From: Candidatus Marinacidobacterium sp.
Lineage (GTDB): Bacteria; Acidobacteriota; Vicinamibacteria; Marinacidobacterales; Marinacidobacteraceae
Reading direction: 5' to 3'
Length of the DNA stretch: 64,000 bases
Assembly (NCBI GenBank): GCA_965204755.1
Contig: OZ242011.1
Coordinates: forward strand, 3,680,001 to 3,744,000
This document shows, one piece after another, positions 1 to 64,000 of this stretch. The position numbers were made by a program, and so were the translations under genes. Position 1 is the first letter of the stretch. Each line of letters begins with the position of its first letter. The notes beneath the pieces were generated by a model. The model made no database searches and was not told the DNA's origin. It was given only the letters and a program-made list of their open reading frames with translations.

Positions 1-1803
1 GGAACCGTGGCCTTCCTGGGCGCCCTCGTCGGCGCGGCCGTCGGGCTCGCCTACGCCGCCGGGATGATCGAGTTGCTGACCGGGGCCTGGGGCGGCGCGG
101 TGGCGGGCGCGTTCGCCGTCTCCGGCGGGGGGAGCGCCGGCCCGCCGCTGGAACTCTTCGCGAGTTGGCGGTCCGTGGCCACCGGCGCCTTCGGCGGACT
201 GGAGATGGCGGCGCTGAGTTCCTGGTGGACCGCGCGCCGGCTGCTCGGGCGCGCTCCCCGCGCCCTCCTGGCCGGCGACCTCTCCGAGGAGCCGGCGGCA
301 GGAGTCTGGCTCCCGGCGCCCGGCGTCTCGACGGAGGGCGGCGGGGGCCCCTCGGAGCGCGAGCCGGTCCCGGGGCGCTCCCGCCCGACCGCCGCTCTCG
401 CTACGGCCGCGGCGGCGCTCGTCCTCGTCGCTCTCACCGGCTTCGGGGCGATCCCGGAAGCCGCGGGATTCTTCGGGGCCGGCGCCCTCCTCCTCGGCGC
501 GGCGCTCCTGGGTGCCCGGACCATGCTCCGCGCGCGTTCGGCGTCGGCCGGGTCCCCGGCGCCTTCGAACAGACCGTTCGCCAGCGTTCGCGGGCTCGCG
601 TTCCGGGCCTCCTCGTTCCGTCCGGGGCGCAGTCTGGCCGCGGTGGCGATGATCGCCTTCGCCGCGTTCCTCCTCGTCGCCGTGGAGTCGTTTCGCAAGG
701 GCGGCGACCCGGGGGCGCTGCCCGCCGGCGCCGGCGGTTTCCTCGCCGTCACGGAGACCGTGTTGGGGACACCTTGGGATCCGACGGGTCCGGAGGGACG
801 GGAGGCGCTGAACCTTCCGGGGGACCTCGGCGGCTTCCGGCTGACCCCGCTGCGCCTCGCCGGCGAGGAAGACGCCAGTTGCCTGAACCTCTACCGCCCG
901 GATCGGCCGCGGGTCGTCGGCGCGCCGCGCCGGTTCACCGAGGAGAACCGGTTCCCGTTCGCGGCCCACCTCGGCGAGACCCCGGAGGAAGAGGAAAACC
1001 CCTGGCGCCTCCTCCGGCGGGAGCGGGCCGCGGGTGATCCGATACCGGTCGTCGGCGACCAGAACTCCATGACCTATGTGCTGAAGTGGCCGATCGGCGA
1101 GACCCGGAGCCTCGCCTTGGGCCCCGGCGGTGAGCCCGTGCGGCTGCTGTTGGTGGCCACCCTGTGGGACAGCATCTTCCAGGGCGAGTTGCTCATGGCG
1201 GAAGAGGACTTGCTCCGCAGCCTTCCGGCCGACGACGGGTACCGGATGTTCCTGGTCGACGAGGCCGGCGGGGCGGAGTCGGCCGGCGGGGCGGGGCCGG
1301 CCGACGGAACGCCTGGCCGGGAGGAAGCGGCCGCGGCGTTGCTCGCCGACGCGCTCGGCGACTACGGCGCCGTCTCGACCACCGCTCGGGCGCGGCTCGC
1401 CGCGTTCCACCGCGTGGAGAACGCGTACCTCTCGACCTTCCAGGCCCTCGGCGGGCTGGGTCTGCTGCTCGGGACGATCGGGCTCGGGGCCGCGCTCTTC
1501 CGCAGCGCCGCCGAGCGGCGCCGCGAGTGGGCGCTGCTCGCCGCCGCCGGCTACCGGAAACGGGACTTCTGGGAACTGGGGTTTTGGGAGAACGCGCTGC
1601 TGCTCGGCGGGGGCCTCGCCGCCGGGGCGGCGGCGGCGCTGGTGGCGGTCTTCCCGGTCCTCGGCGAGCGCGGCGGCGGCGGCAGCGCGTGGCTCCTGGC
1701 GCTCCTCCTGCTCGGCGTCCTCGCGCTCGGCCTGCTGGCCGGCGGCCTCGCCGCCCGCCTGAGCGCCGGCCATCCCCTGATCCCCGCCTTGCGCTCCGAA
1801 TGA
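1..1803 (+). CDS. FtsX/MacB-like ABC transporter permease (5'-truncated)
   Basis: Frame open from base 1. Multiple TM helices, a periplasmic loop with DASCLNLY, and C-terminal ENAYLSTFQALGGLGLLLG...ERRREWALLAAAGY typical of FtsX-like permeases. Confidence 0.8.
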   Translation, partial: GTVAFLGALVGAAVGLAYAAGMIELLTGAWGGAVAGAFAVSGGGSAGPPLELFASWRSVATGAFGGLEMAALSSWWTARRLLGRAPRALLAGDLSEEPAAGVWLPAPGVSTEGGGGPSEREPVPGRSRPTAALATAAAALVLVALTGFGAIPEAAGFFGAGALLLGAALLGARTMLRARSASAGSPAPSNRPFASVRGLAFRASSFRPGRSLAAVAMIAFAAFLLVAVESFRKGGDPGALPAGAGGFLAVTETVLGTPWDPTGPEGREALNLPGDLGGFRLTPLRLAGEEDASCLNLYRPDRPRVVGAPRRFTEENRFPFAAHLGETPEEEENPWRLLRRERAAGDPIPVVGDQNSMTYVLKWPIGETRSLALGPGGEPVRLLLVATLWDSIFQGELLMAEEDLLRSLPADDGYRMFLVDEAGGAESAGGAGPADGTPGREEAAAALLADALGDYGAVSTTARARLAAFHRVENAYLSTFQALGGLGLLLGTIGLGAALFRSAAERRREWALLAAAGYRKRDFWELGFWENALLLGGGLAAGAAAALVAVFPVLGERGGGGSAWLLALLLLGVLALGLLAGGLAARLSAGHPLIPALRSE

Positions 1804-1863
1804 GCCGCTCGAGGTGACCCGGAGACGGCGTCGGTCCGCGAACCGGCGGGGAGCGGCCGGGGA

Positions 1864-1869
1864 TACGAT
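1864..1869 (+). promoter_or_regulatory. Putative -10 box TACGAT, leaderless promoter
   Basis: TANNNT hexamer 7 nt upstream of ATG 1877; no SD sequence. Confidence 0.45.
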
Positions 1870-1876
1870 TCGGGCC

Positions 1877-4069
1877 ATGTCCAAAACCCGAATCGGTCTC
1901 GTTCTCTCCGGCGTCGCCGCGGCCGGTCTCGTCCCGCTCGCGGGCGCGCAGCCGCCGACTCCGGCTCGCGGCTTCCTGCCCGGCCAGTGGGCGGAACAGC
2001 GGGAGATCGAAGAGCGGTTCCGGAGCGTTCCCGACCCGGAGCGTCTTCGGGAGTACCTGGAATTCATGAGCGAGGAGCCGCACATCGCCGGGTTCGGCGA
2101 CGGGAGTCTCCGGGTCGCGCAGTACGCGCTCGAGAAGTTCCGGTCCTTCGGGCTCGACGCGGAGATCGAAGAGACCGAAGCGCTCATGCCGCTTCCGGTG
2201 GAGCGGCAGGTGGAAGTGCTCGGTCCGGAGCCCTACACCCTGCGGCTCGCCGAACCGGGCGTGCCCGAGGACGAGGACACCTCGGATGCCGGCCTGCTTC
2301 CCACCTACAACGCCTACGCCGCGGACGGCGATGTCTCCGCGGAAGTCGTCTATGTGAACTACGGCATTCCCGAGGACTACGAGACCCTCGCCGAACTCGG
2401 CGTCTCCGTCGAGGGGAAGATCGTGATCGCCCGTTACGGGCGCAGTTGGCGCGGCATCAAGGCGAAACTCGCGCAGGACAACGGCGCCGTCGGCGCGCTC
2501 CTCTATTCCGATCCGGAAGAAGACGGCTACTACCGGGGACTGACCTACCCCGAAGGTCCGTACCGTCCGAAGTGGGGCGTCCAGCGCGGTTCCATCATGG
2601 ACATGCCCACGCATCCCGGCGATCCGCTCACGCCGGGTTTCGGCGCCACCGAGGACCGCGAGAAACTCACCCGGGAAACCGCGCGCACGCTCGTCCGGAT
2701 TCCGGTGCTGCCCATCTCCTGGGGCGACGCCTACCCGATCCTGGAACAGTTGCGGGGAGAGCCGGCGCCGAACGACGACTGGAAGGGCGCGCTTCCCTTC
2801 ACCTACCACATCGGGCCGGGGCCGACGCGGGTTCGAATGCGCACCGCCTACGACTGGAAGGTGCGCAAACTGTTCAATGTGATCGCCCGCATCGAGGGTT
2901 CCGAGTACCCGGATGAATGGATCGTCCACGGGAACCACCACGACGGCTGGTGCAACGGCGCGACCGACCCGATCAGCGGCGCGGTCGCGCTCATGGAAAC
3001 CGCGCGCGGTTTCGGCGAACTGCTGGCGGCCGGACACCGTCCGCGCCGGACGGTGGTGTTCGCGCTCTGGGACGGCGAAGAGTGGGGTCTGCTCGGCTCC
3101 ACCGAATGGGCGGAGACCCACCGCGAGGCGCTCGGCGAGGGAGGCGTGGTCTATATCAACACCGATTCCACCGGCAAGGGTTGGCTCGGTCTTGCGGGAA
3201 GCCACACGCTCCAGAAATTCGTGAACGAGGTCGCGCGCGAAGTCACCGATCCGGAGCGGGGCGTCAGCGTGTTCGAAGCCGCCCGCGCCCGGAGACTGGA
3301 GACGGCGGCGAACCCGGAGGCGAGGGCGGAAATCGAACAGGGCGACGACCTCCGCCTCGGCGCCCTCGGCTCCGGTTCCGACTACACGGTCTTCATCGAC
3401 CATCTCACCATGGCCTCGCTGAATCTCGGTTTCGGAGGGGACAGTCCCGGAGGCGTGTACCACTCCAACTACGACACCTTCCATTGGTACGAGAAGTTCT
3501 CGGACTCGGAGTTCGTTTTCGGTCGGACGCTTTCGCAGGTGGTCGGGACGGCCATGTGGCGGCTCGCCAACGCCGCCGTGCTGCCGTTCGGCTTCACGGA
3601 CCTGGCGGCGGTGATGCGCGACTATGTGCAGGAGATCCGAGAGACCCACGCCGCGATGGAGTCGCCGCCGGAGATCGCCTTCGAATCCATCGAGCAGGCG
3701 CTCGACGCCCTCGAGGAAGCCGGGCAGGGATACGAACGGGCGCTCGCCTCGCTCAGCGGCGCGTCTTCGGAGAGCGTCCTCGGGAGTCCTCGACTCTCGC
3801 AGTTGAACCACTTGCTCTACACCTCGGAACGGCGGCTCGGCTATGAGGAGGGGCTGCCGAACCGGGAGTGGTTCCGCCACCAGGTCTATGCGCCCGGCTT
3901 CTTCACCGGATACGGGGTGAAGACGATTCCCGGCGTGCGGGAAGGGATCGAAGAGGAAGACTGGGAGGCGGCGCGCTTCTATGTGCGCGTCGTCTCGGAG
4001 TCGCTCTCTTCGCTGACCTCGCAGGTCCGGGAGGCGGAGGAGATCGTTCGCGGCCTCACCGGCGGATAG
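1877..4069 (+). CDS. M28 family metallopeptidase (glutamate carboxypeptidase II-like, PA and TfR-dimerisation domains)
   Basis: Signal peptide; GNHHDGW, GATDPISG, WDGEEWGLLGSTEW, GSGSDYTVF, YHSNYDTF motifs; C-terminal WFRHQVYAPG. Confidence 0.92.
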   Translation: MSKTRIGLVLSGVAAAGLVPLAGAQPPTPARGFLPGQWAEQREIEERFRSVPDPERLREYLEFMSEEPHIAGFGDGSLRVAQYALEKFRSFGLDAEIEETEALMPLPVERQVEVLGPEPYTLRLAEPGVPEDEDTSDAGLLPTYNAYAADGDVSAEVVYVNYGIPEDYETLAELGVSVEGKIVIARYGRSWRGIKAKLAQDNGAVGALLYSDPEEDGYYRGLTYPEGPYRPKWGVQRGSIMDMPTHPGDPLTPGFGATEDREKLTRETARTLVRIPVLPISWGDAYPILEQLRGEPAPNDDWKGALPFTYHIGPGPTRVRMRTAYDWKVRKLFNVIARIEGSEYPDEWIVHGNHHDGWCNGATDPISGAVALMETARGFGELLAAGHRPRRTVVFALWDGEEWGLLGSTEWAETHREALGEGGVVYINTDSTGKGWLGLAGSHTLQKFVNEVAREVTDPERGVSVFEAARARRLETAANPEARAEIEQGDDLRLGALGSGSDYTVFIDHLTMASLNLGFGGDSPGGVYHSNYDTFHWYEKFSDSEFVFGRTLSQVVGTAMWRLANAAVLPFGFTDLAAVMRDYVQEIRETHAAMESPPEIAFESIEQALDALEEAGQGYERALASLSGASSESVLGSPRLSQLNHLLYTSERRLGYEEGLPNREWFRHQVYAPGFFTGYGVKTIPGVREGIEEEDWEAARFYVRVVSESLSSLTSQVREAEEIVRGLTGG

Positions 4070-4191
4070 GCGGGAGGCCGACGGCGCCGCCGCCGGGGGT
4101 CGCCGGCGGCCTCAGGAACCGGCGGCGCCGAACCGGACGAGGCCGGAACGCCGGGGAACCGCCGACGGAAGCGGCTCGTATCGGGTTCGGC

Positions 4192-6648
4192 ATGGCCACA
4201 CTCGACACCGCGCGACGCCCCTCCGTTCTTCGCCTCGGCGCAGTCGCCGCCGTGGTGCTCGCCGGCGCCCTCGGTCCGGCGGAGGTGGCGGCGCAGACCG
4301 GTAGCCGCGAGGTTCGGGGCGTCGCACGGGACGCGGTCTCCGGGGAGCCGATCCCGGGAGTCACGGTGTCCGGCGGCGGCCGGGCGACGGTCACCGACGC
4401 CGAAGGCGCGTTCTCGATCTCGCTGCCGGCGGGGGCGCCCGGCCTGACCTTCGTCGCCGAGGGCTACTTCGAGGCGTCGGCGCCCCTGCCGCCGGAAGGC
4501 GCGGCCGCGCCGATGTCCGTGCGGATGCTGCCCCGGCGGATCACGGAAGAGGTCGAGGTCACCGCCGCCGCTCCGGGCCTCGCCCGGCCGTCGGCCACGG
4601 TCGTCCCTCCGGCGGAAGTGCTCGAAGTCGCCGGGACCGCGGACAACATCTTCCGCGCCCTCTCCACGCTTCCGGGAGTGGCCGCCACCGAGGACTTCGG
4701 CAGCCGGCTCGCCGTGCGCGGCGGGACTCCGGACCAGAACCTCACGCTCATGGACGGCGTGGAGATCCACAACCCCTATCGCCTCTTCGGACTGGTGAGC
4801 GCCTTCAATCCGGAAACCGTGGAGAGTTTCTCCCTCTCCGCCGGAGGTTTCGGCGCCGCCTACGGCGACCGCCTCTCTTCGCTGCTGATCGTCGAGAACC
4901 GGCCCGGTCAATCGAACCTGTCGGCCACTTCCTCGCTCAGCATCACCGACGGGAACCTGGTGGTCGAGGGGCCCCTGCCGGGTCCCGGCAGTTTCCTGTT
5001 GACCGGCCGGCGCACTTACTACGATGTGATCGTCGGCCGGGTGCTCGACCAGGACTTCCCTTCGTTCCTCGACACGCAGTTGCAGGCGAGATGGGAGTTC
5101 GCGAACGGGACCCGGCTGACCGCCATCGGTCTCCGCAGCCGCGAGGACACGCAGTTCTCCCAGCAGGGGGAGGAGGAACCGGAGCAGTTCGACTTCGTCT
5201 CGGACACTTCGAGCGACCTCGGCGCCCTGCGGCTGGACGCCGTGTTCGGCGAGCGGCTGACTTCGACGACGATCCTGTCGGCGTACCGCAACGCGGAACT
5301 CCTCGATTTCGAGGGGTCCTTCGTGGATGACGAAGACGGCCGGCCGGAGGAGATCTCTTTCGACCGGGAACTCGCGGTAACCGATGTCTCCCTGCGGCAG
5401 GAGTTCGCCCTGCGCCTCGGCGAAGCGCACCGTTTCGAGTTCGGCGCCGAACTCCATCGGCTCGACTCCGGAATCGAGCAGAGTATCCGCGGCGACCGCA
5501 ACGAGGACGTGGCGAACCCGAGCAGCGTTCTCGGTGGAAGCGCCTTGCCGGACTTCCTGGACTCCGATCTCTCCGGGCTTCGGGGCGGCGCCTGGATCCA
5601 GGACACCTTCACTCCGGGGGAGCGCCTCTCGTTCGAACCGGGCCTGAGGCTCGACTGGAACAGCCTGAACGGCGGGAGCACGATCTCGCCCCGGCTCGCC
5701 GTCGGATGGGACTTCGGGAACGGCCTTCGGGCCCGCGCCGCCGGCGGCGTTTACACGCAGAGCCCGGGTTACGAAAAGTTGATCCAGTCGGACTACTTCC
5801 TCGACCTGTCCCGGCTGAAGGAAGACGGGCTCCGCTACGAGCGCGCGCTCCATGCGGTCGTCGGGCTGGAAAAGACCTTCGGAACCGGGATCCGCCTTCG
5901 CGTCGAGGGCTACCGCAAGAGATTCGAAGACCTGCTGGTCGGGCGGCTGGAGACGGACCCGGAGCGCGCCCTGAGGTTGGCCGCCTACGACTTCCCGGCG
6001 GCGCTTCGGGACAGCGTTCCGCGGCGGGCGCAAATCACGATCTCCCCGGTGAACGGCGGCGCGGGCAACGCCTACGGCCTCGACTTCTATCTCGAGCGCC
6101 TCGACCCCGCGGCCCGCCTCGGCGGCTGGCTCAGTTATGCCTGGGGCCGGGCCGAGCGGGAGACCTACGGAGAGCGCTACCCGTTCGAGTACGACCGGCC
6201 CCACGCGGGGAATGCGGTCGCGCGGTTCCGCGTGAGCGACCGCTTCGCGGTGGCGGGGACCTTCCGACTGGCGAGCGGGTTCCCCTATACGCCGGCCGTC
6301 GGCATTCGGGTCGCGGCGGCCCCCGACGAGCGCGGTCTACTGGTTCCCTCGACCGACGAAACCGGGGCGCCCGTCTATCAGGCCGACCTGGGCGGCGTGG
6401 AGAACCTCCACCGGGCGCGCCTGCCGCACTACTCCCGGCTCGACCTCCGCCTCACTTACCGCCACGGCGGCCCCGCGGGGCGGTGGTCGGTCTATGCCGA
6501 AGTCATCAACGCGCTGAACCGGGAGAACGCCATCGCCATGGCCCATGCGGTGACGGCCGATCCGGACACCGGAGTTCCGACCCTCGAGGAAGTGCCGACG
6601 AGCGGGTTCCCGAGGGTGCCCACGATCGGAATCCGTTTCCGGTTCTGA
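4192..6648 (+). CDS. TonB-dependent receptor with N-terminal carboxypeptidase-regulatory-like domain
   Basis: Signal peptide; plug motif LPGV...VRGGTPDQNLTLMDGVEI; GGFGAAYGDRLSS; beta-barrel ending in IRFRF. Confidence 0.9.
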   Translation: MATLDTARRPSVLRLGAVAAVVLAGALGPAEVAAQTGSREVRGVARDAVSGEPIPGVTVSGGGRATVTDAEGAFSISLPAGAPGLTFVAEGYFEASAPLPPEGAAAPMSVRMLPRRITEEVEVTAAAPGLARPSATVVPPAEVLEVAGTADNIFRALSTLPGVAATEDFGSRLAVRGGTPDQNLTLMDGVEIHNPYRLFGLVSAFNPETVESFSLSAGGFGAAYGDRLSSLLIVENRPGQSNLSATSSLSITDGNLVVEGPLPGPGSFLLTGRRTYYDVIVGRVLDQDFPSFLDTQLQARWEFANGTRLTAIGLRSREDTQFSQQGEEEPEQFDFVSDTSSDLGALRLDAVFGERLTSTTILSAYRNAELLDFEGSFVDDEDGRPEEISFDRELAVTDVSLRQEFALRLGEAHRFEFGAELHRLDSGIEQSIRGDRNEDVANPSSVLGGSALPDFLDSDLSGLRGGAWIQDTFTPGERLSFEPGLRLDWNSLNGGSTISPRLAVGWDFGNGLRARAAGGVYTQSPGYEKLIQSDYFLDLSRLKEDGLRYERALHAVVGLEKTFGTGIRLRVEGYRKRFEDLLVGRLETDPERALRLAAYDFPAALRDSVPRRAQITISPVNGGAGNAYGLDFYLERLDPAARLGGWLSYAWGRAERETYGERYPFEYDRPHAGNAVARFRVSDRFAVAGTFRLASGFPYTPAVGIRVAAAPDERGLLVPSTDETGAPVYQADLGGVENLHRARLPHYSRLDLRLTYRHGGPAGRWSVYAEVINALNRENAIAMAHAVTADPDTGVPTLEEVPTSGFPRVPTIGIRFRF

Positions 6649-6696
6649 CGACCGTCGGCGAACCGGGCGCGTACACTTTTCCGCCGCGGCCGGCTC

Positions 6697-8523
6697 TTGC
6701 CGGCCGCGGCTCCCTTGTACCGACCCTCCCCGTCCTCGATCTTCGGCCGACCCGGGCCCCGGGGGGGCGGACTCAGGGCGATCTCGACCGCGCTTTCGGG
6801 AGCGGCGGCGCTGTTCGGCGGGGCCGCCTGCGGAGGGAGCGGGTTCGGGACGAATCCGGAGCAGCCGCCGAATGTGGTGCTGATCCTGGTGGACGACCTC
6901 GGCTATCGCGATGTGGGTTTCATGGGAGCGACCGAGATTGCGACGCCGAACCTGGATCGGCTCGCGGCGGAAGGCGTCGTTTTCGAAGCGGGCTATGTGG
7001 CGCATCCGGCCTGCACGCCGTCGCGCGCCGGGCTGGTCACCGGCAGATACCCGGCCCGATACGGCATGGACGGGAATTTGGCCTATGCGCCCTTCGATCC
7101 GCACCACGGACTGCCGGTGGAAGAAACCACTTTCGTCCGCCTGCTTCGGGACGCCGGTTACCGCACCGGACTGATGGGGAAGTGGCATCTCGGCGCCGCC
7201 CCCGACTTCCTGCCCCGCGTGCGGGGTTTCGAGGAGTTCGTCGGCTTCCTCGACGGCGTCCACCACTACTGGGGGCGCGAAGTGGACGCCGGAGCCCCGT
7301 ACGAAGCGGCGAGGCAACCGATCATCGAGAACACCGAGCCGGCGCGCCTGGCCGGCGACGAGTACCTGACCGACTACCTGACCGACCGGGCCATCGAGTT
7401 CGCGCGCCGGCCGGCCGCGCCGTTCTTCCTCTATCTCTCGTACAACGCCCCGCACCGTCCGCTGCAGGCCCCGCGGGAACTCATCGCGAAGTACGACCGG
7501 GTTCCGAACGAACGCCGACGGCGGTACTTGGCGATGGTGGATTCGCTCGACCGGAATGTGGGGCGGCTGCTCGACGCGCTGGAAGCGAGCGGGAAGCGCG
7601 AGGACACCGTGGTTTTCTTCCTGAGCGACAACGGCGGCGTCCACCCCGAGAGGTCCGGGCCGACGAACGACTTCGCGGACAACGGCCCGCTTCGGAACGG
7701 GAAGGGCAGCCTCTACGAGGGCGGCATCCGCGTGCCGTTCGCCGCCTCCTGGCCGGCGCGCTGGCCGCGCGGCGCGACCTACGGGCCGATGGTCATCAGT
7801 CTCGACATCGCCGCTACGGTGCTGGCGCTCGCCGGCGTCGAGCCGGAACGCCCGCTCGACGGCGTGGACCTCGATCCGTTCCTCTCGGGCGAAGCGGAGG
7901 GGTCTCCCCACGACCTGCTGTTCTGGCGCAACGGGACGGAATACGCCGTGCGGAGCGCGGACCGCAAACTCGTGCAGCACGGCGACGATCCCCCGGAACT
8001 GTTCTCTCTGGCGGACGACCTCGGGGAGTCCCGGAACCGCCTGCCCGAAGAGGCCGAGAGCGCGAGCGACCTCGCCGCCCGGTGGAGCGAGTGGAACCGG
8101 GCGAACACGGGGCCGCGCATCCGCAGCCGGGGGGAATACGACCGGATCCTCACCGCGTACCTGGACGATCGGGAACGCGCGCAGGCGGCTGCCGCGGAGT
8201 CCGGGGAGTGCCGCATCCGGGCCGTCGTCGGCGCGTCCCCGCCTCCGCCGCCGGTCGGCCTCCGGGCGGTTCGCCGCGACGGCGGAATCGAACTCCGCTG
8301 GCCGCGGGCGAGCGACCCGGGCGCCATCCTGTCTTGGGAGTACCGGTTCCGTCAGCCGGGAGGCGGCGATTGGAGCGGCTGGCAGCGAGTCTATGGGGCT
8401 TCCGGGTGTCTCGACCGCGTCGGGGTAGCCAATGCTCCGCCTGAGGGCGCCGTGGAGGTCGAGTTGCGCGCCCGGAATGCGTCGGGCGTCGGGGCCGCGG
8501 CCCGAGTCGCGTCCACTCCCTGA
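6697..8523 (+). CDS. Formylglycine-dependent sulfatase (probable lipoprotein) with C-terminal Fn3-like domain; start uncertain
   Basis: PNVVLILVDDLG, CTPSR (CxPxR) motif, GKWHLG, SDNGG, GKGSLYEGGIRVP; C-terminal ELRW...WEYR...ELRARNASGVG. Confidence 0.9.
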   Translation: MPAAAPLYRPSPSSIFGRPGPRGGGLRAISTALSGAAALFGGAACGGSGFGTNPEQPPNVVLILVDDLGYRDVGFMGATEIATPNLDRLAAEGVVFEAGYVAHPACTPSRAGLVTGRYPARYGMDGNLAYAPFDPHHGLPVEETTFVRLLRDAGYRTGLMGKWHLGAAPDFLPRVRGFEEFVGFLDGVHHYWGREVDAGAPYEAARQPIIENTEPARLAGDEYLTDYLTDRAIEFARRPAAPFFLYLSYNAPHRPLQAPRELIAKYDRVPNERRRRYLAMVDSLDRNVGRLLDALEASGKREDTVVFFLSDNGGVHPERSGPTNDFADNGPLRNGKGSLYEGGIRVPFAASWPARWPRGATYGPMVISLDIAATVLALAGVEPERPLDGVDLDPFLSGEAEGSPHDLLFWRNGTEYAVRSADRKLVQHGDDPPELFSLADDLGESRNRLPEEAESASDLAARWSEWNRANTGPRIRSRGEYDRILTAYLDDRERAQAAAAESGECRIRAVVGASPPPPPVGLRAVRRDGGIELRWPRASDPGAILSWEYRFRQPGGGDWSGWQRVYGASGCLDRVGVANAPPEGAVEVELRARNASGVGAAARVASTP

Positions 8524-8592
8524 ACCGGCGCCGCCGGGCCGCCCGCGCTCTCCGGACGCCGCTCCGGCCGGGGGTCGCGCGGATGCGGGCGC

Positions 8593-9330: not shown

Positions 9331-9408
9331 CGAATCCCCCCGTCCGCAGGCGTCAGCGGAAAAGGCTCAGGGGGGGAATGAAGTCAGTAGTTGGAACTCG
9401 GGGGGCGG

Positions 9409-10719: not shown

Positions 10720-10848
10720 GCGGATTCCTCCCGCCGCGGATCGGCGTTCACCGGACGAAGGCCCGAGGTGGCGGTGGATCGGTTGCGACGGCCGGGACGC
10801 CCGCGATCACGGGAGCGATCTTCCGAATCTCCGGTGTGAGCGGGCTGT

Positions 10849-10880
<32 letters not shown>

Positions 10881-12729: not shown

Positions 12730-12839
12730 GCCGTTCTGCTCGGGCCGGCGCCGGTCGGACCCCCGGGATGGGCGTCGGACCTGCCGGGTCTGCGATTTCG
12801 TGGGCCGGCCGGCTCAAGCGCCCGGCTCAGGCGCCCCGC

Positions 12840-23907: not shown

Positions 23908-23941
23908 GCCATCGCGGGCGCCGCTGCGCTAATCTGAGACG

Positions 23942-24409: not shown

Positions 24410-24554
24410 GCCCCTCCTGCCCGCGCCCCTGCGCGGCGCTCCTCCCCCGAGCAGGGGGGGGGCGGCGGCCCGAGGGCGCGCTCCCTCGATGGCTTCGGCC
24501 CCCCGAGGCCGGCGGCTCGGCGCGAGGCGCCCCGCCTCCGGCAGGAGACTCTCC

Positions 24555-26414
24555 ATGGACTCGTCCCGCCCCCCGGCGGCTTCCTCCGCGTCAACCGCCT
24601 CCCTCTTCCGCCCCACCCGGCGGCAATTCGTCACCGGCCTCGCCGGCGCCGGCGCGCTGGCCCTCGGCGGCCGAACCGGCGCCGCGCCGCTTCACGGGCC
24701 GCGGGCCGGCTCCCCGGACAACGGGATGTCGCCGCCCGAACTCACCGGGACCTCGTTCGACCTGACCATCGGCGAGACCCCCGTGAACCTGACCGGCGCC
24801 CCGCGCCGCGCCCTCACCGTGAACGGTTCGCTCCCGGCGCCGACGCTGCGCCTCCGGGAAGGGGACACGGTGACGCTCCGGGTGCGGAACACCCTGGACG
24901 AGATGACCTCGATCCACTGGCACGGCATCCTGTTGCCCGCGAACCAGGACGGGGTGCCCGGCCTCAGTTTCGACGGGATCCCCCCCGGAGCGACCCACGC
25001 CTTCCGGTTCCGCCTCAGGCAGTCCGGCACCTACTGGTACCACAGCCATTCGGCGTTCCAGGAGCAGCGCGGCGTGTACGGCGCGCTCGTCGTCGAGCCG
25101 CGCGACGGGCGGACGCCGTCCTACGACCGGGACCAGGTCCTCGTGCTGTCGGACTGGACGGACGAGGACCCGCAGCGGGTGTTCTCCAAACTCCGGAAGA
25201 TGTCCCACTACTACAACCGGAACCAGCCGACGCTCGGCGACCTGGTCGGGGAGGTTCGCCGGGACGGGTGGCGGGAGGCGGTGTCCGAGCGGCTCGCCTG
25301 GGCGGCGATGCGGATGAACCGCGCCGACATCGCCGATGTGACCGGCGAGACCTACACCTTCCTGCTGAACGGGCGGCCGCCCGCGGCGAACTGGACCGGC
25401 CTCTTCCGGCCCGGGGAACGGATCCGCCTGCGGATCGTGAACGCAGCCGCCATGACCCACTTCGACTTCCGGATCCCGGGGCTGCCGCTCACCGTGACCG
25501 GCTCGGACGGACAGCCGGTGCATCCGGTCACCGTGGACGAGTTCCGGATCGCTCCCGGCGAGACCTTCGACGCCATCGTCCGGCCAACCGGGCAGGACGC
25601 TTTCGCGCTCTTCGCCCAGGCGATCGACCGGAGCGGCTACGCCGCCGGCGGGCTCGCGGTTCGGCCGGGGCTCAGAGCCCCGGTTCCGGCGCTCGACCTG
25701 CCGCCGCTCCTGACCATGGGCGACATGGGACACGGCGACCATGGAGGGCACGGTGACCATGGAGGGCACGGCGACCATCGGGGCCACGGGGACCACGCCG
25801 CCCGGCCGGCGGCCCCGGCGGCGATGCCGGAGCACGCCGGGCACGGCGGAGGGCGCGGGACCGGCCGCGGCGGTTCCTCGGCCGTCCCCATCGTCCACCC
25901 GGCCAGCGAGCGGGGGAATCCGTTGGTGGACATGCAGATCGAGGCGGCGAGCGCCCGACTCGACGATCCCGGCGTAGGACTCCGGGACACGGGCCGGCGG
26001 CCGCTGACCTACGCCGACCTGCGCTCGGCCTTCGCCGACCCGGACGGGCGGGAACCCGGCCGCGAGATCGAGTTCCACCTCACCGGCCACATGGAGCGCT
26101 ATTCCTGGTCGTTCGACGGCATCCCGTTTTCCGGGGCGGACCCGGTGCGGCTCGGCTACGGCGAGCGGCTGCGCTTCGTGCTGGTCAACGACACCATGAT
26201 GACCCACCCGGTCCACCTCCACGGGATGTGGAGCGACCTCGAGGACGAACTCGGCGGTTTCCATCTCCGGAAACACACCGTGGACCTGCCTCCGGGGACC
26301 CGCCGGACCCTCCGGGTTCGCGCCGACGCGCTGGGCCGTTGGGCCTTCCACTGCCACCTGCTGTTCCACATGGCGGCGGGGATGTTCCGGGAAGTCCGGG
26401 TGGAGGAATCATGA
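24555..26414 (+). CDS. copA: Copper-resistance multicopper oxidase CopA
   Basis: SD AGGAG; Tat TRRQFV; HWHG, YWYHSH, HPVHLHG and HCHLLFHM copper ligands; His-rich linker. Confidence 0.95.
   Translation: MDSSRPPAASSASTASLFRPTRRQFVTGLAGAGALALGGRTGAAPLHGPRAGSPDNGMSPPELTGTSFDLTIGETPVNLTGAPRRALTVNGSLPAPTLRLREGDTVTLRVRNTLDEMTSIHWHGILLPANQDGVPGLSFDGIPPGATHAFRFRLRQSGTYWYHSHSAFQEQRGVYGALVVEPRDGRTPSYDRDQVLVLSDWTDEDPQRVFSKLRKMSHYYNRNQPTLGDLVGEVRRDGWREAVSERLAWAAMRMNRADIADVTGETYTFLLNGRPPAANWTGLFRPGERIRLRIVNAAAMTHFDFRIPGLPLTVTGSDGQPVHPVTVDEFRIAPGETFDAIVRPTGQDAFALFAQAIDRSGYAAGGLAVRPGLRAPVPALDLPPLLTMGDMGHGDHGGHGDHGGHGDHRGHGDHAARPAAPAAMPEHAGHGGGRGTGRGGSSAVPIVHPASERGNPLVDMQIEAASARLDDPGVGLRDTGRRPLTYADLRSAFADPDGREPGREIEFHLTGHMERYSWSFDGIPFSGADPVRLGYGERLRFVLVNDTMMTHPVHLHGMWSDLEDELGGFHLRKHTVDLPPGTRRTLRVRADALGRWAFHCHLLFHMAAGMFREVRVEES
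25731..25796 (+). repeat. 18-nt tandem repeat encoding HGDHGG in CopA
   Basis: cacggcgaccatggaggg-like unit, about 3.7 copies. Confidence 0.85.
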
Positions 26415-29719: not shown

Positions 29720-31209
29720 TCCCGCGGCGAGCGGCCCTCCGGAGCCGACCCGTTCGGCGGCGCCCCGGTGGCGGCCTCCAGCTCTTCGAAGGCGAACAGG
29801 CGGTTCCGGCTGGCGATGTAGAGGACGCCGTTCGCCGGGACCGCGCTGGAGTACACCGAACTGCCCAGGTTCATCTCGGCGATCACTTCCTCGGTCGGCC
29901 CCGGACGCAGTACGACCACATCGCCGTCTTCGTCGCCCAGGTACAACTTCCCGTCGGCGACGAGCGGCGAGCCCCAGACCGCGGCGAAGGTGTCGTGCAC
30001 CCACAGCGGCTCGCCGCTCTCCGCATCGAGCGCATGCAGGAATCCGGAGAAGTCCGGGAGGTAGAGGATCCCGTCCTGCACCGCCGCGGTGGAGATGGAC
30101 CGCCGAATGGCGTCGTAGTGCCAGACGCGGCCGGTCTCGGTGATGTCGCCGCGCTTCGTCCCGTCTATGGCGTAGAGGTGGCCGACGCCCTCCCCGTGCT
30201 CGGGGTCCTGGCCGTTCGCGAGGAACAGGTGGTCGCCCACGATGACCGGAGTGGAGATCAGGCTGTTGCGCGTGCGGGGCCAGACGGAATCCTTGGGGTT
30301 CGTGTCGAACTCCCACAGCGTCTCCCCGGTCAGCGCCTCGTACCCCCGCGCCCAGCCGTCGCCTTCGCCGAGGACGACCTGGGTGACGCCGCCGATCTCG
30401 CCGACCCCGGCGGAGGACCACTGCCCGTGCAGGATGTTCTCGCCCACATGGTTTTGCTCCCAGACGAGTTCCCCGGTGTTCTTGTCCACCGCGATGATCG
30501 CCGGCGCGAGCGGGGACGGGATGTTGGCGTGGGTCTCGTCGTGGCCGTTGGAAGTGGTGACGAAGAGGAGGTCGCCGACGCTCACCGGACTGGCGTTCGA
30601 CATGTTGTGCGGGAACGCGCCGAGTTCCTCGATCATGTCCAGCCGCCAGAGGATGTCCCCGTCGTTCGGCGAGAGGTAGGTCTCCTCGGTGTACGGGCCG
30701 TCGTTGCCGTCCGCCAGGCCGTTCGCGTCGAGGGCGAGGACCTCGCCCCGGTTCGTCACATAGAAGACCCGGTCGCCCTCGATCAGCGGCGACGAACAGA
30801 TTCCCTGGTAGGGCCAGTCGTTCACCCGGCCGGTCGGGAGTTTGTCGGAGACCATCTGCCAGAGGAACTCGCCGGTCCCGGCGTCGAAGGCGAGCAGGAT
30901 GCCCTTGTCGCCGGTGATCTCCCGGTCGTAGAGCGCCTCGTTGTTCGTGCCGACATAGACCCGGCCCCCGGCGACCACCGGGTTCCCGTAGGTCTGCGAA
31001 CCGAGCGGCGCCGCCCACTTCACATTCCGCCCGCTCCCCACATCCCACTCGGCGGGAAGGCGGGCGGAACCCTCCGAGACCATGTTCCGGTGCGGCGCGC
31101 CGCCCCACATCGGCCAGTCCTGCGCCCCGGAGGAAGCCGCCGGGACGGGCGCGGCGAACGCCGCTGCGCCGAGGACAACCGCTCCGGCGGCCCGGCCGGC
31201 GATCTTCAT
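29716..31209 (-). CDS. PQQ/BamB-like beta-propeller protein
   Basis: Signal peptide; DWPMWGG; blades such as YGNPVVAGGRVYVG and WGSPLVADGKLY. Confidence 0.85.
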   Translation of the reverse strand: MKIAGRAAGAVVLGAAAFAAPVPAASSGAQDWPMWGGAPHRNMVSEGSARLPAEWDVGSGRNVKWAAPLGSQTYGNPVVAGGRVYVGTNNEALYDREITGDKGILLAFDAGTGEFLWQMVSDKLPTGRVNDWPYQGICSSPLIEGDRVFYVTNRGEVLALDANGLADGNDGPYTEETYLSPNDGDILWRLDMIEELGAFPHNMSNASPVSVGDLLFVTTSNGHDETHANIPSPLAPAIIAVDKNTGELVWEQNHVGENILHGQWSSAGVGEIGGVTQVVLGEGDGWARGYEALTGETLWEFDTNPKDSVWPRTRNSLISTPVIVGDHLFLANGQDPEHGEGVGHLYAIDGTKRGDITETGRVWHYDAIRRSISTAAVQDGILYLPDFSGFLHALDAESGEPLWVHDTFAAVWGSPLVADGKLYLGDEDGDVVVLRPGPTEEVIAEMNLGSSVYSSAVPANGVLYIASRNRLFAFEELEAATGAPPNGSAPEGRSPRE

Positions 31210-60031: not shown

Positions 60032-61093
60032 GTGAGGCCGATCCCGGGGCTCGATCCGCCGGAATATGTGACTTGGGCGCCCGACCCGCAGGTCGTCCGC
60101 GAATTCGGGGACCGGGCGTTCGCGGACGACCGCCTGGCGGCCATCCTCGGGGGGACCGACGAGGACCGGCGGCTGGGGTTCTACGAGGGGCTCGCGCGCA
60201 ACCGGCTCCACGACCTGCAGTTGAAGCGCTGGGTGCGCTCCGGCGCGCTCTCGAAGGCCTGGCTCGGCCCCGGGGAAGAGGCCGTCACCGTCGGCGCCTG
60301 CCGCGCGCTCGGCGAGGGCGATGCGGTCGGGCCGATGATCCGCAACGCCGGCGCGGCCCACGAGCGGGGAATGCCGCTCTCCGCGCTCTTCCGGGGCGCG
60401 CTCGGGGCCCGGGACGGCCCGGCGGGGGGCCGCGACCTCCACTTCGGGGATCCCGAGCGCGGCGTGGTGGCGCCGATCAGCATGGTCGGGTCGCTGGTCC
60501 CGGTGATCTCCGGGATGGCGCTCGCCTTTCGGCTCCGGGGCGAGTCGAGGATCGGTCTCACCTGGGTGGGGGACGGGAGCGTGGCGACCGCCGGGTTCCA
60601 CGAGGGGATGGCGGCGGCCGCGGCGCTCCGGGCGCCGGTCGTGGTCGTGATCCAGAACAACCGGATCGCCTTGGGAACGCCGCTGCCCGGGGACGGGGTC
60701 GAGCGGCTCCGGGCCTCCGGCGGGCCCTACGGCGTCCCGCTCCTGGAAGTGGACGGCAACAATGTGCTCGAGGTGTTCGCCGCCGTCGCTCTCGCCCGGC
60801 GGACGGCGCTCGCGGAGTCCCGGCCCGTTCTGGTGCTGGCGCACACCTTCCGCATGGGCGGACATGCGACCCACGACGAGGGGCTGAGCCGGCGGCTCCT
60901 CCCGCCGGAACACTTCGAGTACTACGGCCGCCGCGATCCGGTGCGGGCGTACCGCGCGTTCCTCGCCTCGGGGTGGGATCGCGCCGACGTCTCCTGGCCG
61001 GCGGTCCCGGAGGACCGGCTCGCGGGGATCGAACGCCGCGTCGAGGCCGAAGTCGAAGCGGCGCAGGCGGAGGCGCTCGCCTCGGTCGGGTAA
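60032..61093 (+). CDS. TPP-dependent 2-oxoacid dehydrogenase E1 alpha-like subunit
   Basis: GEEA; GDGS...NN TPP-binding motif; VDGNN; RMGGHATHD; DPV. Confidence 0.85.
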   Translation: MRPIPGLDPPEYVTWAPDPQVVREFGDRAFADDRLAAILGGTDEDRRLGFYEGLARNRLHDLQLKRWVRSGALSKAWLGPGEEAVTVGACRALGEGDAVGPMIRNAGAAHERGMPLSALFRGALGARDGPAGGRDLHFGDPERGVVAPISMVGSLVPVISGMALAFRLRGESRIGLTWVGDGSVATAGFHEGMAAAAALRAPVVVVIQNNRIALGTPLPGDGVERLRASGGPYGVPLLEVDGNNVLEVFAAVALARRTALAESRPVLVLAHTFRMGGHATHDEGLSRRLLPPEHFEYYGRRDPVRAYRAFLASGWDRADVSWPAVPEDRLAGIERRVEAEVEAAQAEALASVG

Positions 61094-61144
61094 CTCCCGA
61101 AAGCGGCCGGCCGGGTCTGCCGGGCCGGTCGGGCGGGCGGCTCG

Positions 61145-61579
61145 TCAGTCCGGGGACTTCTTCGGGCGGCGCTCCACCGGGAAGTGGTTCAGGCCGAGGC
61201 GTGCGGCGGAACGGTCGGTCTGGTCCACGATGGCGGCGGCGTTGATGCCGATGGCGATCACGATCGCCTCGCTGATCTCCTCGCGGGTCGCCCCGGCCTT
61301 GATCGCCTTCTTGATGTGGCCGTCCAGGCACCCCTCACACTGGGCGACCAGCGAACAGGCGAGCGCGATGAGTTCCTGGGTCCGGGCGTCGAGGTGGGCG
61401 TTCTCCGAGAAATAGGTCTCCTTGTAGAACTGGCCGTAGATCGCCTTCATCCGCGGCTCCAGCATCGAGTACGACGCCGGGGGGCGGGCCTGCTTCCCGG
61501 CGCCGCCGACTTCGTCCGGTTCGTAATCGATGCCCGGGATGCGCGCCTCCGCCGGGGAGGGCGCCGTCTTCTTCGCCAT
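61145..61579 (-). CDS. Carboxymuconolactone decarboxylase/AhpD-like protein
   Basis: LDARTQELIALACS..QCEGCLDGH...AGATREEISE. Confidence 0.85.
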   Translation of the reverse strand: MAKKTAPSPAEARIPGIDYEPDEVGGAGKQARPPASYSMLEPRMKAIYGQFYKETYFSENAHLDARTQELIALACSLVAQCEGCLDGHIKKAIKAGATREEISEAIVIAIGINAAAIVDQTDRSAARLGLNHFPVERRPKKSPD

Positions 61580-61827
61580 GCCGTTTCGTCCTGTCCGTAG
61601 TCCTGTCTGGATCGTGGTTCGGGTGGGGCCGCCGTCCCGAGCGCGGCCGGTTTCTCAGCGCCGCCCCGCCGCGGGACCCGCGGCGGCCCGTCTCGGAACC
61701 GGGACGATCCCGCGGAGGATGGCGGCGCGTCGGGGAAGCGAGAGTACACCGAACGCGCTCCGCGAGGGGAGGTTCCGTTCGTCCGCCGCCGCCTCCGGAA
61801 GAGGCGGCCGGGCGCCCGGGTCGGGGT

Positions 61828-63999
61828 TCAGGTTCCGTCCGGGCGGCGGGCGCGGGGTCGGCCCTTCGGTCTCTCGCGCCCGCGGGGGCGGGCGCCGGCG
61901 GGGGGCGGCGCCGGCGCCGCGGCGATCAGTCGGCCGGTGACTTCCTCGATCCGGGTCAGGGTTTCGACCGCCGGAGGCGCGAGGGCGAAGCCCGCGGCGC
62001 GGGCGCGCTCCCGGAGGACCGCCGCTTCGCGCGCGGCTTCCCGGGCCGGGGCGTCGCGGTCGGCGGCGCGCCCCGCGCCCAAGCGGCGCTGGAGGATTTC
62101 GGCCGCGGATTCCGCGCCCGCGTTCGCGTCCCGTTCGCCGGCCAACTCCTCCACCGCGGAAAGGAGCCCGGCCAGCCGGGAGGCGACCAGGGACTGGTCG
62201 AAACGGGTCCCGGCGAAGGCGTCCGGAGCGGCCTCGTACGCCTCGCCCAGGCACTCCGCGAGTCGGCGCTCCGCCTTCTCCTCCTGCGGGCCGGGGCGAA
62301 GTCCGGGGGTCGGCTTCCGGCGGCGGCGGTGCTCGGTCCAGAGTTTCTCCGCCGCCGCCGGGCGCTCGGCGGGGGGGAGCGTCGCCGTCTCTTCCACGCG
62401 GGCCAGGAGGTCGGCTGCGTCCGGCGGGTCCTCGGCCGTCCGGGACGCCTCGTCCCGGGCTCGGCGGCGGCGGTCGCGGGCGTCGTCGCAGGCGGTACGG
62501 AATTCGTCCCAGAGCCGGTCACTCGCGCTCCGTGGGACCGGGGGGGCCTCCTTCCATTCCGTCATCAGCGCGCGAACGCCGGAATGGACCGCTTTTTCGT
62601 CCGTTTCTTCGAGGAGGGCCTTCGCCCGGGCGATCAGCGCCTCCCGCGCGGCGATGTTGGCCGCGAACTCCTGGCGGCGTTGCTTCCGGATCTCGCCGAT
62701 GGCGTCGAAGTAGCGCCGGTTGGCCGCCCGGAACCGCTTCCAGACCTTCTCGGACTTCTTCCGGCCGAGGCCTCGGGCGTTTTCGCGCCACTCGTCCATG
62801 AGGGCGGCCATCTCCGAACTCCGCTTCGGGTCCTCGCCGCCTCCGATCTCCTCGGCGCGTTCCGCCAGTCGGCCCAGCGCCTCGAGTTGTTCGGCGGCCC
62901 GCTTCTCGGCGGCCTCCCGGAGCGGCGCCACCCGCTCGAGCAGCCGCGCGCGGAGGACCGTCCACTCTTCCCAGAGCGCCTGCCCGCGGTCCCGCTCGGT
63001 GTGCCGGACCTCGCGCCACTGTTTCTCGAGTTTCCCGAGTTCGCGGTCGAGCGCGCGCGGGTCCTCGATGGACTCGACTTCCCGGGCGCGGCGGATCAAC
63101 TCCTCCTGTTCGGCGAGGTTCGACCACCTCTTCCACTCCCGGAGTTCGCGCGCTTCACGCAGCCGGGGGATCAGCGCGGCCTGCAGGCGCTCGAGCCGGG
63201 CCCTTCGCTCCGCGCCCAGCGCCCGCCAGTCCGCCGGTCGGTTGCGGAGAGTCCCGAGTTCGCGGAGGGCGGCCTCCGCCTCGGGAAGGGAAAGGGTCTT
63301 CGCGCCTTCGAGTTCGGTCAGCCGCCGTTCGAGTCCGGAGAGTCGAGCCCGGCGGTCCTCGACCTGCTTGCGAGAAACGCGTTCGCGGGCTTCCAGGCGG
63401 TCTTCGATGGCGGACGCCGCGCGGCGGAAACGCGCGGCGTCTTCGGAGTCCGCGGAAGGGCGGACCGGAGCGGGCCGTCCGCCCTCCCCCGGTTCGTCCG
63501 GCGGGCCGCCCGCGTCTCCGGGCGGCGGCGGCAGGTCGGGTTCCGGCGCGGATTCCGCGGCCCCGGCGGCCGCCTCCGGCCGCGCGGACTCCTCGGCGTC
63601 GGGCGGCGCTTCGGTCGCGGCCGGCTCTTCGGTCGCGGCCGGCTCTTCGGTCGCGGCCGGTTCTTCGGTCCCGGTCGGCTCTTCGGAGGCCGGGGTGTCC
63701 GTCGAGGTCGCCTCCTCGGCCGTGCCCGATTTCTCGGACGGGGGCGGCCCTCCCGCCGGTTCGGCGCCGCGGGTCAAGGCGGCGAACCGGCGGTTCAGCC
63801 GCGCGAGTTCGCGCCGGGCTCCTTCGGGGCGCTCGGCGTCCGGACGCTCGGTCAGGCTCTTGAGGAACGACTCCGCCTGGTCCGCGATCTCCGCGAGCGC
63901 GAAGGCGGCCTCGCGCTCCTTCTTCCGGGAAAACGCGCGTTCCCGCGCCGCGCGCGCCGCCGCCTTCCATTCCTCCCGAACCGGAGCGTCTTCGGCGAT
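61828..63999 (-). CDS. DUF349-like coiled-coil protein (5' end beyond the window)
   Basis: Frame stays open to the window end; repeats such as REWKRWSNL..QEEL, W..F.AA...YF and W...PPVPR...LWDEF. Confidence 0.75.
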   Translation of the reverse strand: MAEDAPVREEWKAAARAARERAFSRKKEREAAFALAEIADQAESFLKSLTERPDAERPEGARRELARLNRRFAALTRGAEPAGGPPPSEKSGTAEEATSTDTPASEEPTGTEEPAATEEPAATEEPAATEAPPDAEESARPEAAAGAAESAPEPDLPPPPGDAGGPPDEPGEGGRPAPVRPSADSEDAARFRRAASAIEDRLEARERVSRKQVEDRRARLSGLERRLTELEGAKTLSLPEAEAALRELGTLRNRPADWRALGAERRARLERLQAALIPRLREARELREWKRWSNLAEQEELIRRAREVESIEDPRALDRELGKLEKQWREVRHTERDRGQALWEEWTVLRARLLERVAPLREAAEKRAAEQLEALGRLAERAEEIGGGEDPKRSSEMAALMDEWRENARGLGRKKSEKVWKRFRAANRRYFDAIGEIRKQRRQEFAANIAAREALIARAKALLEETDEKAVHSGVRALMTEWKEAPPVPRSASDRLWDEFRTACDDARDRRRRARDEASRTAEDPPDAADLLARVEETATLPPAERPAAAEKLWTEHRRRRKPTPGLRPGPQEEKAERRLAECLGEAYEAAPDAFAGTRFDQSLVASRLAGLLSAVEELAGERDANAGAESAAEILQRRLGAGRAADRDAPAREAAREAAVLRERARAAGFALAPPAVETLTRIEEVTGRLIAAAPAPPPAGARPRGRERPKGRPRARRPDGT
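63609..63686 (-). repeat. 18-nt tandem repeat encoding TEEPAA linker
   Basis: cttcggtcgcggccggct-like unit, about 4.3 copies. Confidence 0.85.
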
Positions 64000-64000
64000 C

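Follow-up and report, generated by a model that had tools for sequence, protein, structure and literature searches.

Near-absence of the palindromes AGCT and ACGT from a Candidatus Marinacidobacterium chromosome and its reading as restriction-site avoidance

This report deals with two four-letter palindromes, AGCT and ACGT, which are nearly absent from a 64,000-base stretch of the chromosome of Candidatus Marinacidobacterium sp. (GenBank assembly GCA_965204755.1, contig OZ242011.1, positions 3,680,001 to 3,744,000; the whole of this stretch is called the window below) and from the chromosome as a whole, a single contig of 3,975,858 bases (G000). The window has a GC content of 71.65%, and holds two AGCT and four ACGT against about 165 of each expected by base-count arithmetic. 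Its GC is 0.67 at 44001–52000, as opposed to 0.70–0.75 in the remaining window, and an Rfam scan of the window gave no match. The relevant features are listed here by position in the window.

1..64000, strand not applicable: shortage of AGCT (2) and ACGT (4) over the whole window by word counts, part of a chromosome-wide loss (genome observed/expected 0.026–0.045)
70..75, plus strand: Glu-Leu written GAG TTG, a forced synonymous escape (AGTT at 71), in the frame of the gene that ends at 1803
5507..5510: residual ACGT within a TonB-dependent receptor gene, 3868–6648
6871..6876, plus strand: Asn-Val written AAT GTG, a forced synonymous escape, in frame with the gene 6697–8523
29780..29783: residual AGCT between the called genes 24489–26414 and 31206–33473
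43295..45031, plus strand: HsdM, the methylase of a Type I system, not responsible for the loss (N6_Mtase 1.1e-99, HsdM_N 7.9e-29)
47503..47506: residual ACGT in the lower-GC Type I restriction-modification block
49242..49245: residual ACGT in the same lower-GC Type I block, within the called gene 48386–49465
49479..53291, plus strand: Type I restriction subunit HsdR, a bystander (T1RH-like_C 2.1e-126, SWI2_SNF2 5.6e-77, HSDR_N 8e-41)
56284..56287: residual AGCT within the called gene 55342–56349, minus strand
60987..60990: residual ACGT within the called gene 60032–61093

An initial annotation, made from the letters of the window, had reported the shortage and ascribed it to deamination of 5-methylcytosine (m5C) placed in both words by long-resident methyltransferases, helped by poor T:G repair. 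The near-absence itself was borne out, with ACGT at exactly the positions given (5507, 47503, 49242 and 60987). The AGCT at 29780 was also confirmed, but it is not the only one, as had been supposed, the second at 56284 having been overlooked. The codon pairs quoted as rewritten with AT-richer synonyms are indeed there, giving AGTT at 71, AACT at 152 and ATGT at 1076 and 2331 (the last from GAT GTC at 2330), besides the AAT GTG at 6871; the pairs at 70, 151, 1075 and 6871 are in frame by our gene calls, and the one at 2330 lies in an uncalled stretch. The words that a C-to-T change would leave behind number, in the window, 150 for AACT (about 62 expected), 151 for AGTT (about 69), 128 for ATGT (about 69) and 94 for ACAT (about 62). 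The Type I methylase had rightly been set aside, as Type I enzymes have bipartite recognition sites and not four-base palindromes.

Over the whole chromosome, about 97% of both words is gone. Counted on one strand, and with expectations calculated by base composition, order-1 and order-2 Markov models, ACGT occurs 265 times against 10,247, 11,601 and 7,148 expected, respectively, and AGCT 332 times against 10,247, 8,320 and 7,448. The Markov-corrected check that had been proposed with the initial annotation therefore leaves the two words in place as the lowest of the 256 tetranucleotides, with order-2 ratios of 0.037 for ACGT and 0.045 for AGCT. Both are self-complementary, and the non-palindromic ACCT/AGGT are outside the 20 lowest of the 256 words. 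AACT/AGTT and ACAT/ATGT reach 2.4 and 1.6 times their base-composition expectation, respectively. The word CTAG is low too in G000 (0.13); as it stands at 0.00–0.07 by base composition in nine normal family members sampled, its shortage is family-wide and is a matter separate from the loss of AGCT and ACGT.

Nineteen relatives were sampled with at least 20 kb each, namely a congener (G001, 400 kb), a member of another genus of the same family (G005, 60 kb) and 17 others (20 kb each). The ratio is 0.10 for AGCT and for ACGT in G001, so that loss of both words is restricted to one genus; in G005 only ACGT is lost (0.07, with AGCT at 0.92), and the 17 others are normal (AGCT 0.95–1.78, ACGT 0.64–1.70). 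The rpoB loci of 28 relatives give the same pattern. Median protein identity between G000 and G001 is 78%, and in their core orthologues (42,790 aligned codons) four sites are found in G000 and 38 in G001, none of them shared. Synonymous sites between the two are saturated, and the direction of substitutions is therefore unreadable; internal repeats, considered as a mutation clock, consisted only of tandem repeats inside giant genes, with no ancestral sites.

The distribution of the loss among reading frames was determined on home-made gene calls based on GC at third codon positions (GC3), which are crude but frame-safe; the first set comprises 1,783 genes (67% of the genome) and a looser one 2,012 genes (75%). 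A site can lie on codon positions 1–3 and the next base (f1), across positions 2–3 and the following 1–2 (f2), or on position 3 and the next codon (f3, i.e. nnA-GCT and nnA-CGT, where the hyphen marks the codon boundary). In genes with GC3 of at least 0.84, AGCT was observed 14 times against 1168 expected in f1, 23 against 3994 in f2 and 10 against 183 in f3; the corresponding figures for ACGT are 15 against 1328, 31 against 2852 and 12 against 161. Every reading frame is at least 10-fold depleted for both words, the f3 shortage being 10–18-fold across gene sets and 13–18-fold in the genes with GC3 of at least 0.84. Because f3 sites have no silent deamination route, they must vanish through changes at the outer wobble positions. 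After A, Ala is written GCT in 0.006 of cases and Arg is written CGT in 0.005, compared with 0.070 and 0.081 in normal relatives. The f3 loss, which is equal for the mild products of Ala and the harsh products of Arg, cannot come from neutral deamination.

A large excess of the C-to-T products is found only in the frames whose sole synonymous exit is the central transition: 1,319 AGT-T against 285–298 expected (4.4–4.6-fold), 4,813 nAA-CTn against 1,795–2,363, 4,507 nAG-TTn against 2,479–2,725 and 3,716 nAT-GTn against 527–995. Genome-wide, Glu-Leu is written GAA-CTC (0.48), GAG-TTG (0.25) or GAA-CTG (0.22), while GAG-CTG and GAG-CTC together make up 0.63 in normal relatives, and Asn-Val is AAT-GTN in 0.98 of 811 pairs in G000 as opposed to the normal relatives, which have AAC-GTN (0.91 of 169 pairs). 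Apart from A-TGT, treated below, products with an altered amino acid are near expectation (nAC-ATn 1.03–1.12, ATG-T 0.84–0.92, A-GTT 1.0, A-CAT 1.13), and A-ACT, at 1.45, is inside the range of comparable pairs (A-CCT 1.81, A-CTT 1.54). Since the genetic code forces the outcome in the former frames, product excess in genes is not diagnostic of deamination. Threonine before T offers a free choice: ACG, which has a share of 0.405 elsewhere, falls to 0.008, and the codons used are ACC (0.71) and ACT (0.24) rather than the deamination product ACA (0.047); in core genes, ACA is at 0.020, compared with about 0.018 which, by our own arithmetic, plain redistribution gives once a general preference for T-ending codons before T (see below) is taken into account. 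Thus, the product excess to which the initial annotation had appealed as proof of deamination is real in forced coding frames, and is missing both for threonine before T and in the intergenic DNA.

The intergenic set of G000 consists of 838 short gaps (94.9 kb), in which AGCT occurs 16 times against 118–206 expected and ACGT six times against 115–206, i.e. a 7–30-fold depletion (0.03–0.14). By the order-2 model, the products are at 0.91 (AACT/AGTT) and 0.98 (ATGT/ACAT). In comparison with three normal relatives, AACT is 1.59 times as frequent, exactly like the control word AAGT (1.59), and ACAT 1.17 times, although this is a weak test, the gaps pooled from the relatives amounting to 11.5 kb. 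Depletion with no excess of the products had been named beforehand as the result that would speak against deamination, and its occurrence in the gaps favours plain site avoidance.

A general effect of codon context was also noted. In all eight four-fold families, T-ending codons are 1.5–10 times commoner before a codon starting with T (GGT 0.192 versus 0.039), and in relatives, compared for Thr and Ser, this preference is weaker.

The sites that survive in G000 are distributed as follows.

rRNA operon: 24 of the 332 AGCT and 6 of the 265 ACGT
tRNA genes: 25 AGCT (in 23 of the 67 tRNAs) and 6 ACGT
Called genes: 129 AGCT and 141 ACGT
Remainder of the genome: 154 AGCT and 112 ACGT

The 23S rRNA gene contains 16 AGCT, compared with 10–18 in nine normal relatives; all the 13 AGCT positions held by at least six of these nine are present also in G000, and a further AGCT at column 1229 is peculiar to it. 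ACGT occurs there twice, compared with 4–9 times in normal relatives. One fifth of all AGCT of the genome (69) sit in 100 copies of one AT-rich 12-nucleotide motif, whose adjoining word is AGCT in 69 copies, AGGT in 22, AGCC in six, AGGC in three and AGTT in none. The copies form nine intergenic arrays, all outside the window, with 9–14 same-strand copies each at a spacing of 20–21 or 30–31 bp, and each array is made up of two sub-arrays 200–250 bp apart, an iteron- or centromere-like layout. The motif, with at most one mismatch, was not found in G001, G005, G004, G008 or G012, and the genes flanking the nine arrays show no homology among them. The arrays are located at the following positions of G000.

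357894–358232: array of the 12-nucleotide motif
756031–756420: array of the motif
1207950–1208339: array of the motif
1659955–1660352: array of the motif
2045499–2045907: array of the motif
2895447–2895804: array of the motif
2970772–2971125: array of the motif
3119130–3119618: array of the motif
3494175–3494697: array of the motif

The other residual sites cluster in lower-GC bins. DNA nearly identical to G000 is present in sponge and marine metagenome runs (17 runs in six studies), and contigs of four other public runs, from three studies, were compared with it (40 of the 486 differences were listed). A 3.67-kb segment of G000 (1219225–1222896), carrying six ACGT and two AGCT, is skipped by the contigs from all four runs, which have 56 other letters instead, and therefore looks like a strain-specific recent insertion. 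The listed differences include 15 of the T>C or A>G kind, none of which recreates a site, with 102 opportunities in the stretch.

Six C5 methyltransferase matches were found in G000, all outside the window as had been predicted, along with 25 matches to PF01555 (the N4/N6 methylase family) and with Type I and other systems. Restriction-modification genes are so numerous that their presence alone cannot assign a specificity. Six Vsr matches above the Pfam cut-off, five of them uninterrupted and one broken by a TGA, are located mostly beside the C5 methylases, contrary to the suggestion of poor T:G repair. Two modules fit the lineage pattern of the loss, each composed of a C5 methylase, Vsr and a GHKL-ATPase, at 1259–1264 kb (c-module) and 1516–1521.5 kb (f-module). 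Besides the methylase and Vsr, their proteins are one of about 630–660 amino acids with a GHKL ATPase fold, a second of about 300–345 amino acids without a known family and a third belonging to DUF6339. The methylase genes lie at 1262788–1263828 (c-type) and about 1519920–1521071 (f-type).

In the c-module, the order of the genes is C5 methylase, three PADLOC PDC-M33A/B/C genes and Vsr, all three PDC-M33 models being matched (A 8.2e-93, B 2.5e-40, C 9.9e-23). The module and its flanks are collinear over 17 kb between G000 and G001 and uninterrupted in both, and so were present in their common ancestor; the adjacent Vsr gene is intact, and a partial duplicate of it lies next to a 2-kb insertion. 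No close homologue was found in any other of the 29 relatives searched, where the best identities are about 31% or less. Subunit A has no match in Pfam even at E 5. It is modelled as a GHKL ATPase fold (mean predicted local distance difference test score, pLDDT, 76), and Foldseek pairs the model with GRP94, TRAP1, Hsp90 and topoisomerase VI-B (E 1.2e-08 to 4e-07, probability 1.00); the template-modelling (TM) scores are low, 0.2–0.4, because the proteins are multi-domain. The proteins matching M33A in protein collections are all named 'hypothetical protein', and the protein atlas returned only unnamed clusters. In the literature searched, no paper mentions PDC-M33 or DUF6339, and none deals with 'Marinacidobacterium'.

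The f-module matches only model A (6.1e-06) and DUF6339 (0.00079), and is at best a distant PDC-M33 variant. Its locus is common to G000 and G001, with 74–92% identity in the left flank and 74–78% in the Vsr gene, while the methylase-A-B-C cassette of G001 is only about 42% identical to that of G000 and has many ACGT (18 within the 20 kb of the locus). The cassette of G000 instead matches that of G005 along its full length, and the two methylases are 65–90% identical in every 30-column window, variable region included. The locus (G000 1510001–1530000 versus G001 241001–261000) looks like a hot spot for the exchange of defence cassettes.

We lean towards long-term selection against AGCT and ACGT as the cause of the loss, exerted through self-damage from long-resident restriction-modification and perhaps sped by the mutability of m5C. 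Selection on the words themselves best explains why all frames and the gaps are depleted, why no product excess appears where the choice is free, why sites are retained in functional DNA and why fresh ones occur in new DNA; that this selection works through restriction, and through which enzymes, is what we infer. According to this scheme, selection on the two palindromes in the chromosome of this sponge- or marine-associated Acidobacteriota lineage would have been long and weak per site: an unmethylated site would be an occasional target of the cell's own nuclease, and lineages losing it would fare slightly better. Genes would lose sites only through synonymous changes. For Glu, Gln or Lys before Leu, for Asn, Asp, His or Tyr before Val, and for Ser AGC before T, the sole synonymous exit is the central C-to-T or G-to-A change, and such forced transitions would generate the excess of AACT, AGTT and ATGT and the rewritten codon usage. 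Sites would stay where function forbids change, as in rRNA, tRNA and a putative protein-binding repeat, and newly acquired DNA would bring fresh ones. The c- and f-modules are the candidate agents, and if they methylate the central C, the mutability of m5C may add an approximately 5–10-fold depletion at silent transitions. It is possible, if doubtful, that the modules represent an uncharacterised ATP-dependent restriction class of 4-bp specificity, AGCT for the genus-ancestral module and ACGT for the one shared with G005, with a self-toxicity far above that of orthodox Type II systems; in that case, the purge would be a read-out of their recognition sequences, and m5C mutability would speed the silent escapes.

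A number of observations weigh against selection through restriction. The f3 depletion is 4–10 times weaker than that in f1 and f2, where the transition is silent, while equilibrium selection in its simple form predicts the same depletion across frames. The gradient fits an extra mutational push at silent transitions, and a contribution of m5C mutability is compatible with it, although not needed; strong selection combined with a heavy influx of mutations into rare-codon states could also produce it. The word A-TGT, the product of an Arg to Cys change, is at 2.3–3.2 times expectation, the top of the 16 A-NNT pairs and a hint of C-to-T flux, and column 2870 of 23S is ATGT in G000 and G001, while it is ACGT in eight of eight normal relatives and in G005. 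The expansion of an AGCT-bearing repeat in G000 indicates that present selection against AGCT is not absolute, and with a ratio of about 0.01 in genes the loss goes far past the avoidance usually reported. In addition, the frame counts depend on home-made GC3-based gene calls that cover 67–75% of the genome. Finally, no nuclease or methylase specific for AGCT or ACGT was identified among the genes of G000, and homologues of the candidate methylases elsewhere do not come with the loss. For the c-type methylase as an AGCT enzyme, 13 loci were found in public genomes, seven of them at 62–72% identity including G001 itself; of the six homologues elsewhere (62–67% identity) none is strongly depleted, with AGCT ratios of 0.51–1.38. 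Their islands look recently acquired (GC below that of the flanks), and AGCT specificity is neither backed nor refuted by them. For the f-type, five of 400 genomes of the phylum had matches, and 12 stretches of 20 kb showed no ACGT depletion; at 54–61% identity, none of three genomes is depleted; and among 80 metagenome loci (46–64% identity), of which the 47 of at least 5 kb were scored, none is below 0.33. Homologues without depletion may recognise other sequences or have been acquired recently.

Mutation pressure alone, that is m5C in AGCT and ACGT deaminating faster than it is repaired with no selection on the sites, gains from several of these same points, i.e. the stronger depletion in silent-transition frames, A-TGT and column 2870, to which the 4.4–4.6-fold excess of AGT-T may be added. 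One of the six C5 methyltransferases is, moreover, ancestral to the depleted genus, and the positions of sites kept by G001 read ATGT in G000 in 9 of 17 cases, and AACT or AGTT in 11 of 21, nearly all of them in a forced frame. Nevertheless we regard it as unlikely. Vsr genes stand beside most of the C5 methylases; nnA-GCT and nnA-CGT are equally lost (10/183 and 12/161), though Ala to Val or Thr is milder than Arg to Cys or His; and the non-synonymous products nAC-ATn, ATG-T, A-GTT and A-CAT are not in excess. A rough estimate of the flux would put the product excess in neutral DNA of 75% GC at about 2-fold, compared with the 0.91 and 0.98 seen in gaps. The 23S gene keeps all its AGCT, at variable positions included, and has even its own at column 1229. 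The 100 copies of the repeat show no AGTT against 22 AGGT, a weak point because the motif may be constrained. The rate would have to rise 70–200-fold, which is above known values for methylated hotspots in repair-proficient cells. A fossil avoidance, in which ancestral restriction systems have since been lost or replaced and the now neutral sites are slowly returning, appears slightly less probable still. It would account for the roughly 10 times more sites of G001 in the same orthologues (38 versus 4), nearly all in the preferred-codon frame, for the replacement of its f cassette by the ACGT-full one, and for an AGCT-bearing repeat newly expanded in G000 only, and traces of lost systems are described in the portion of Rusinov et al. 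(2015, PMC4687349) available to us. On the other hand, core genes of G000 are still at 0.003–0.02 of expectation in spite of a codon bias towards GAG-CTG and GAC-GTG, such a depletion is hard to keep after synonymous saturation without continuing pressure, and the c-module is present and uninterrupted in both G000 and G001.

A process at the DNA level unrelated to restriction-modification, as proposed for clade-A pandoraviruses, is improbable. The lack of a cognate enzyme in G000 agrees with it, as does the degree of loss, similar to the pandoravirus case as far as this is set out in the accessible part of 10.1101/712018; yet AGCT and ACGT are both palindromes such as classic Type II enzymes recognise, restriction-modification genes abound in the chromosome, functional DNA tolerates hundreds of sites, and G005 has independently lost ACGT alone in another genus. 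An assembly or base-calling artefact at methylated motifs, of the kind that causes systematic consensus errors in some long-read chemistries, is effectively refuted: stable-RNA sites are kept, the replacements are synonymous and respect the reading frame, and the contigs of the four runs agree.

Comparison with known systems gives likenesses on several sides. As with Dcm and Vsr of Escherichia coli, G000 has C5 methylases with an adjacent Vsr, and its losses are heaviest at sites whose C-to-T change is silent; in E. coli, Dcm sites are not known to be purged. The decay of CpG in vertebrates leaves an excess of TG and CA in unconstrained DNA, unlike what is seen in G000, whose intergenic DNA has no product-specific excess. 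Self-toxicity of long-resident restriction-modification is the established model for such avoidance. In the accessible part of Rusinov et al. (2015, PMC4687349) it is the cause proposed, the sites of long-resident orthodox Type II systems are reported as those most avoided, and avoidance, shared among related genomes, can outlive the system. The present case resembles those in that short palindromes are rare genome-wide and close relatives share the avoidance. With respect to the cases described there, it differs in degree (a ratio of 0.03 over the genome and of about 0.01 in core genes, with two four-letter words affected together), in the inversion of codon preference for whole codon-pair classes, and in the candidates, which are multi-gene GHKL-ATPase modules instead of orthodox two-gene systems. 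The nearest striking counterpart is that of the clade-A pandoraviruses. With these, as presented in the accessible part of Poirot et al. (10.1101/712018), G000 has in common a near-total and lineage-specific loss of AGCT from a GC-rich genome with no single constant replacement word, which was read there as stringent counter-selection. In those viruses, according to the same part, AGCT alone is lost, down to zero also between genes, ACGT is abundant, and no methylase or nuclease difference was found; G000 has lost two words, still carries hundreds of sites in functional or new DNA, and encodes dozens of methyltransferases.

The avoidance of two four-letter words, by a factor of about 30 over the genome and about 100 in core genes, is among the most extreme cases of short-palindrome avoidance documented here for a bacterial chromosome, with codon preference inverted for roughly ten amino-acid pairs. 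We regard it as an extreme case of a known phenomenon, restriction-site avoidance, and not as proof of methyl-cytosine decay, for which one has to look at four-fold codons, non-coding DNA and frames with a non-synonymous product. Such a bias would distort analyses of codon usage, tetranucleotide binning and horizontal transfer in genomes of sponge symbionts. Should the GHKL-ATPase modules turn out to be responsible, the specificity of an uncharacterised defence system could be read from the genome itself.

Some other methylases of G000 were considered and set aside. The N4/N6 methylases A (1033879–1035123) and B (about 2194001–2195020) are orphans in conserved housekeeping contexts, one before a gene of the beta-lactamase fold and the other between purL and purF, 80–81% identical to their counterparts in G001; methylase C, also N4/N6 and common to the depleted genomes, has a Mu-type portal gene as its neighbour. 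A partner nuclease was found for none of the three. Methylase A belongs to a widespread family, with 63–72% identity across phyla, and a 125-residue remnant (67% identity) is present in G005. The C5 methylase d is followed by a 653-residue protein (2394090–2396048) that combines an ATPase domain of the GHKL type with a tail resembling PD-(D/E)XK nucleases; this protein has no orthologue in G001 and therefore cannot explain the shared purge. Beside it are a GmrSD-type gene and another N4/N6 methylase, in a low-GC island with six ACGT and no AGCT in 6 kb, and G004 has three pairs of GHKL/PD-(D/E)XK protein and methylase at about 30% identity.

In the 3.98 Mb of G000, ARAGORN predicted 67 tRNA genes, and there was one 23S rRNA match only. 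Very long internal tandem repeats, whose units measure about 390 or about 693 bp with 80–90% identity and which extend up to 24 kb, presumably correspond to giant repeat-protein genes and are located in G000 as follows.

850–875 kb: long tandem repeats
3532.8–3545.3 kb: long tandem repeats
211.5–219.2 kb: long tandem repeats

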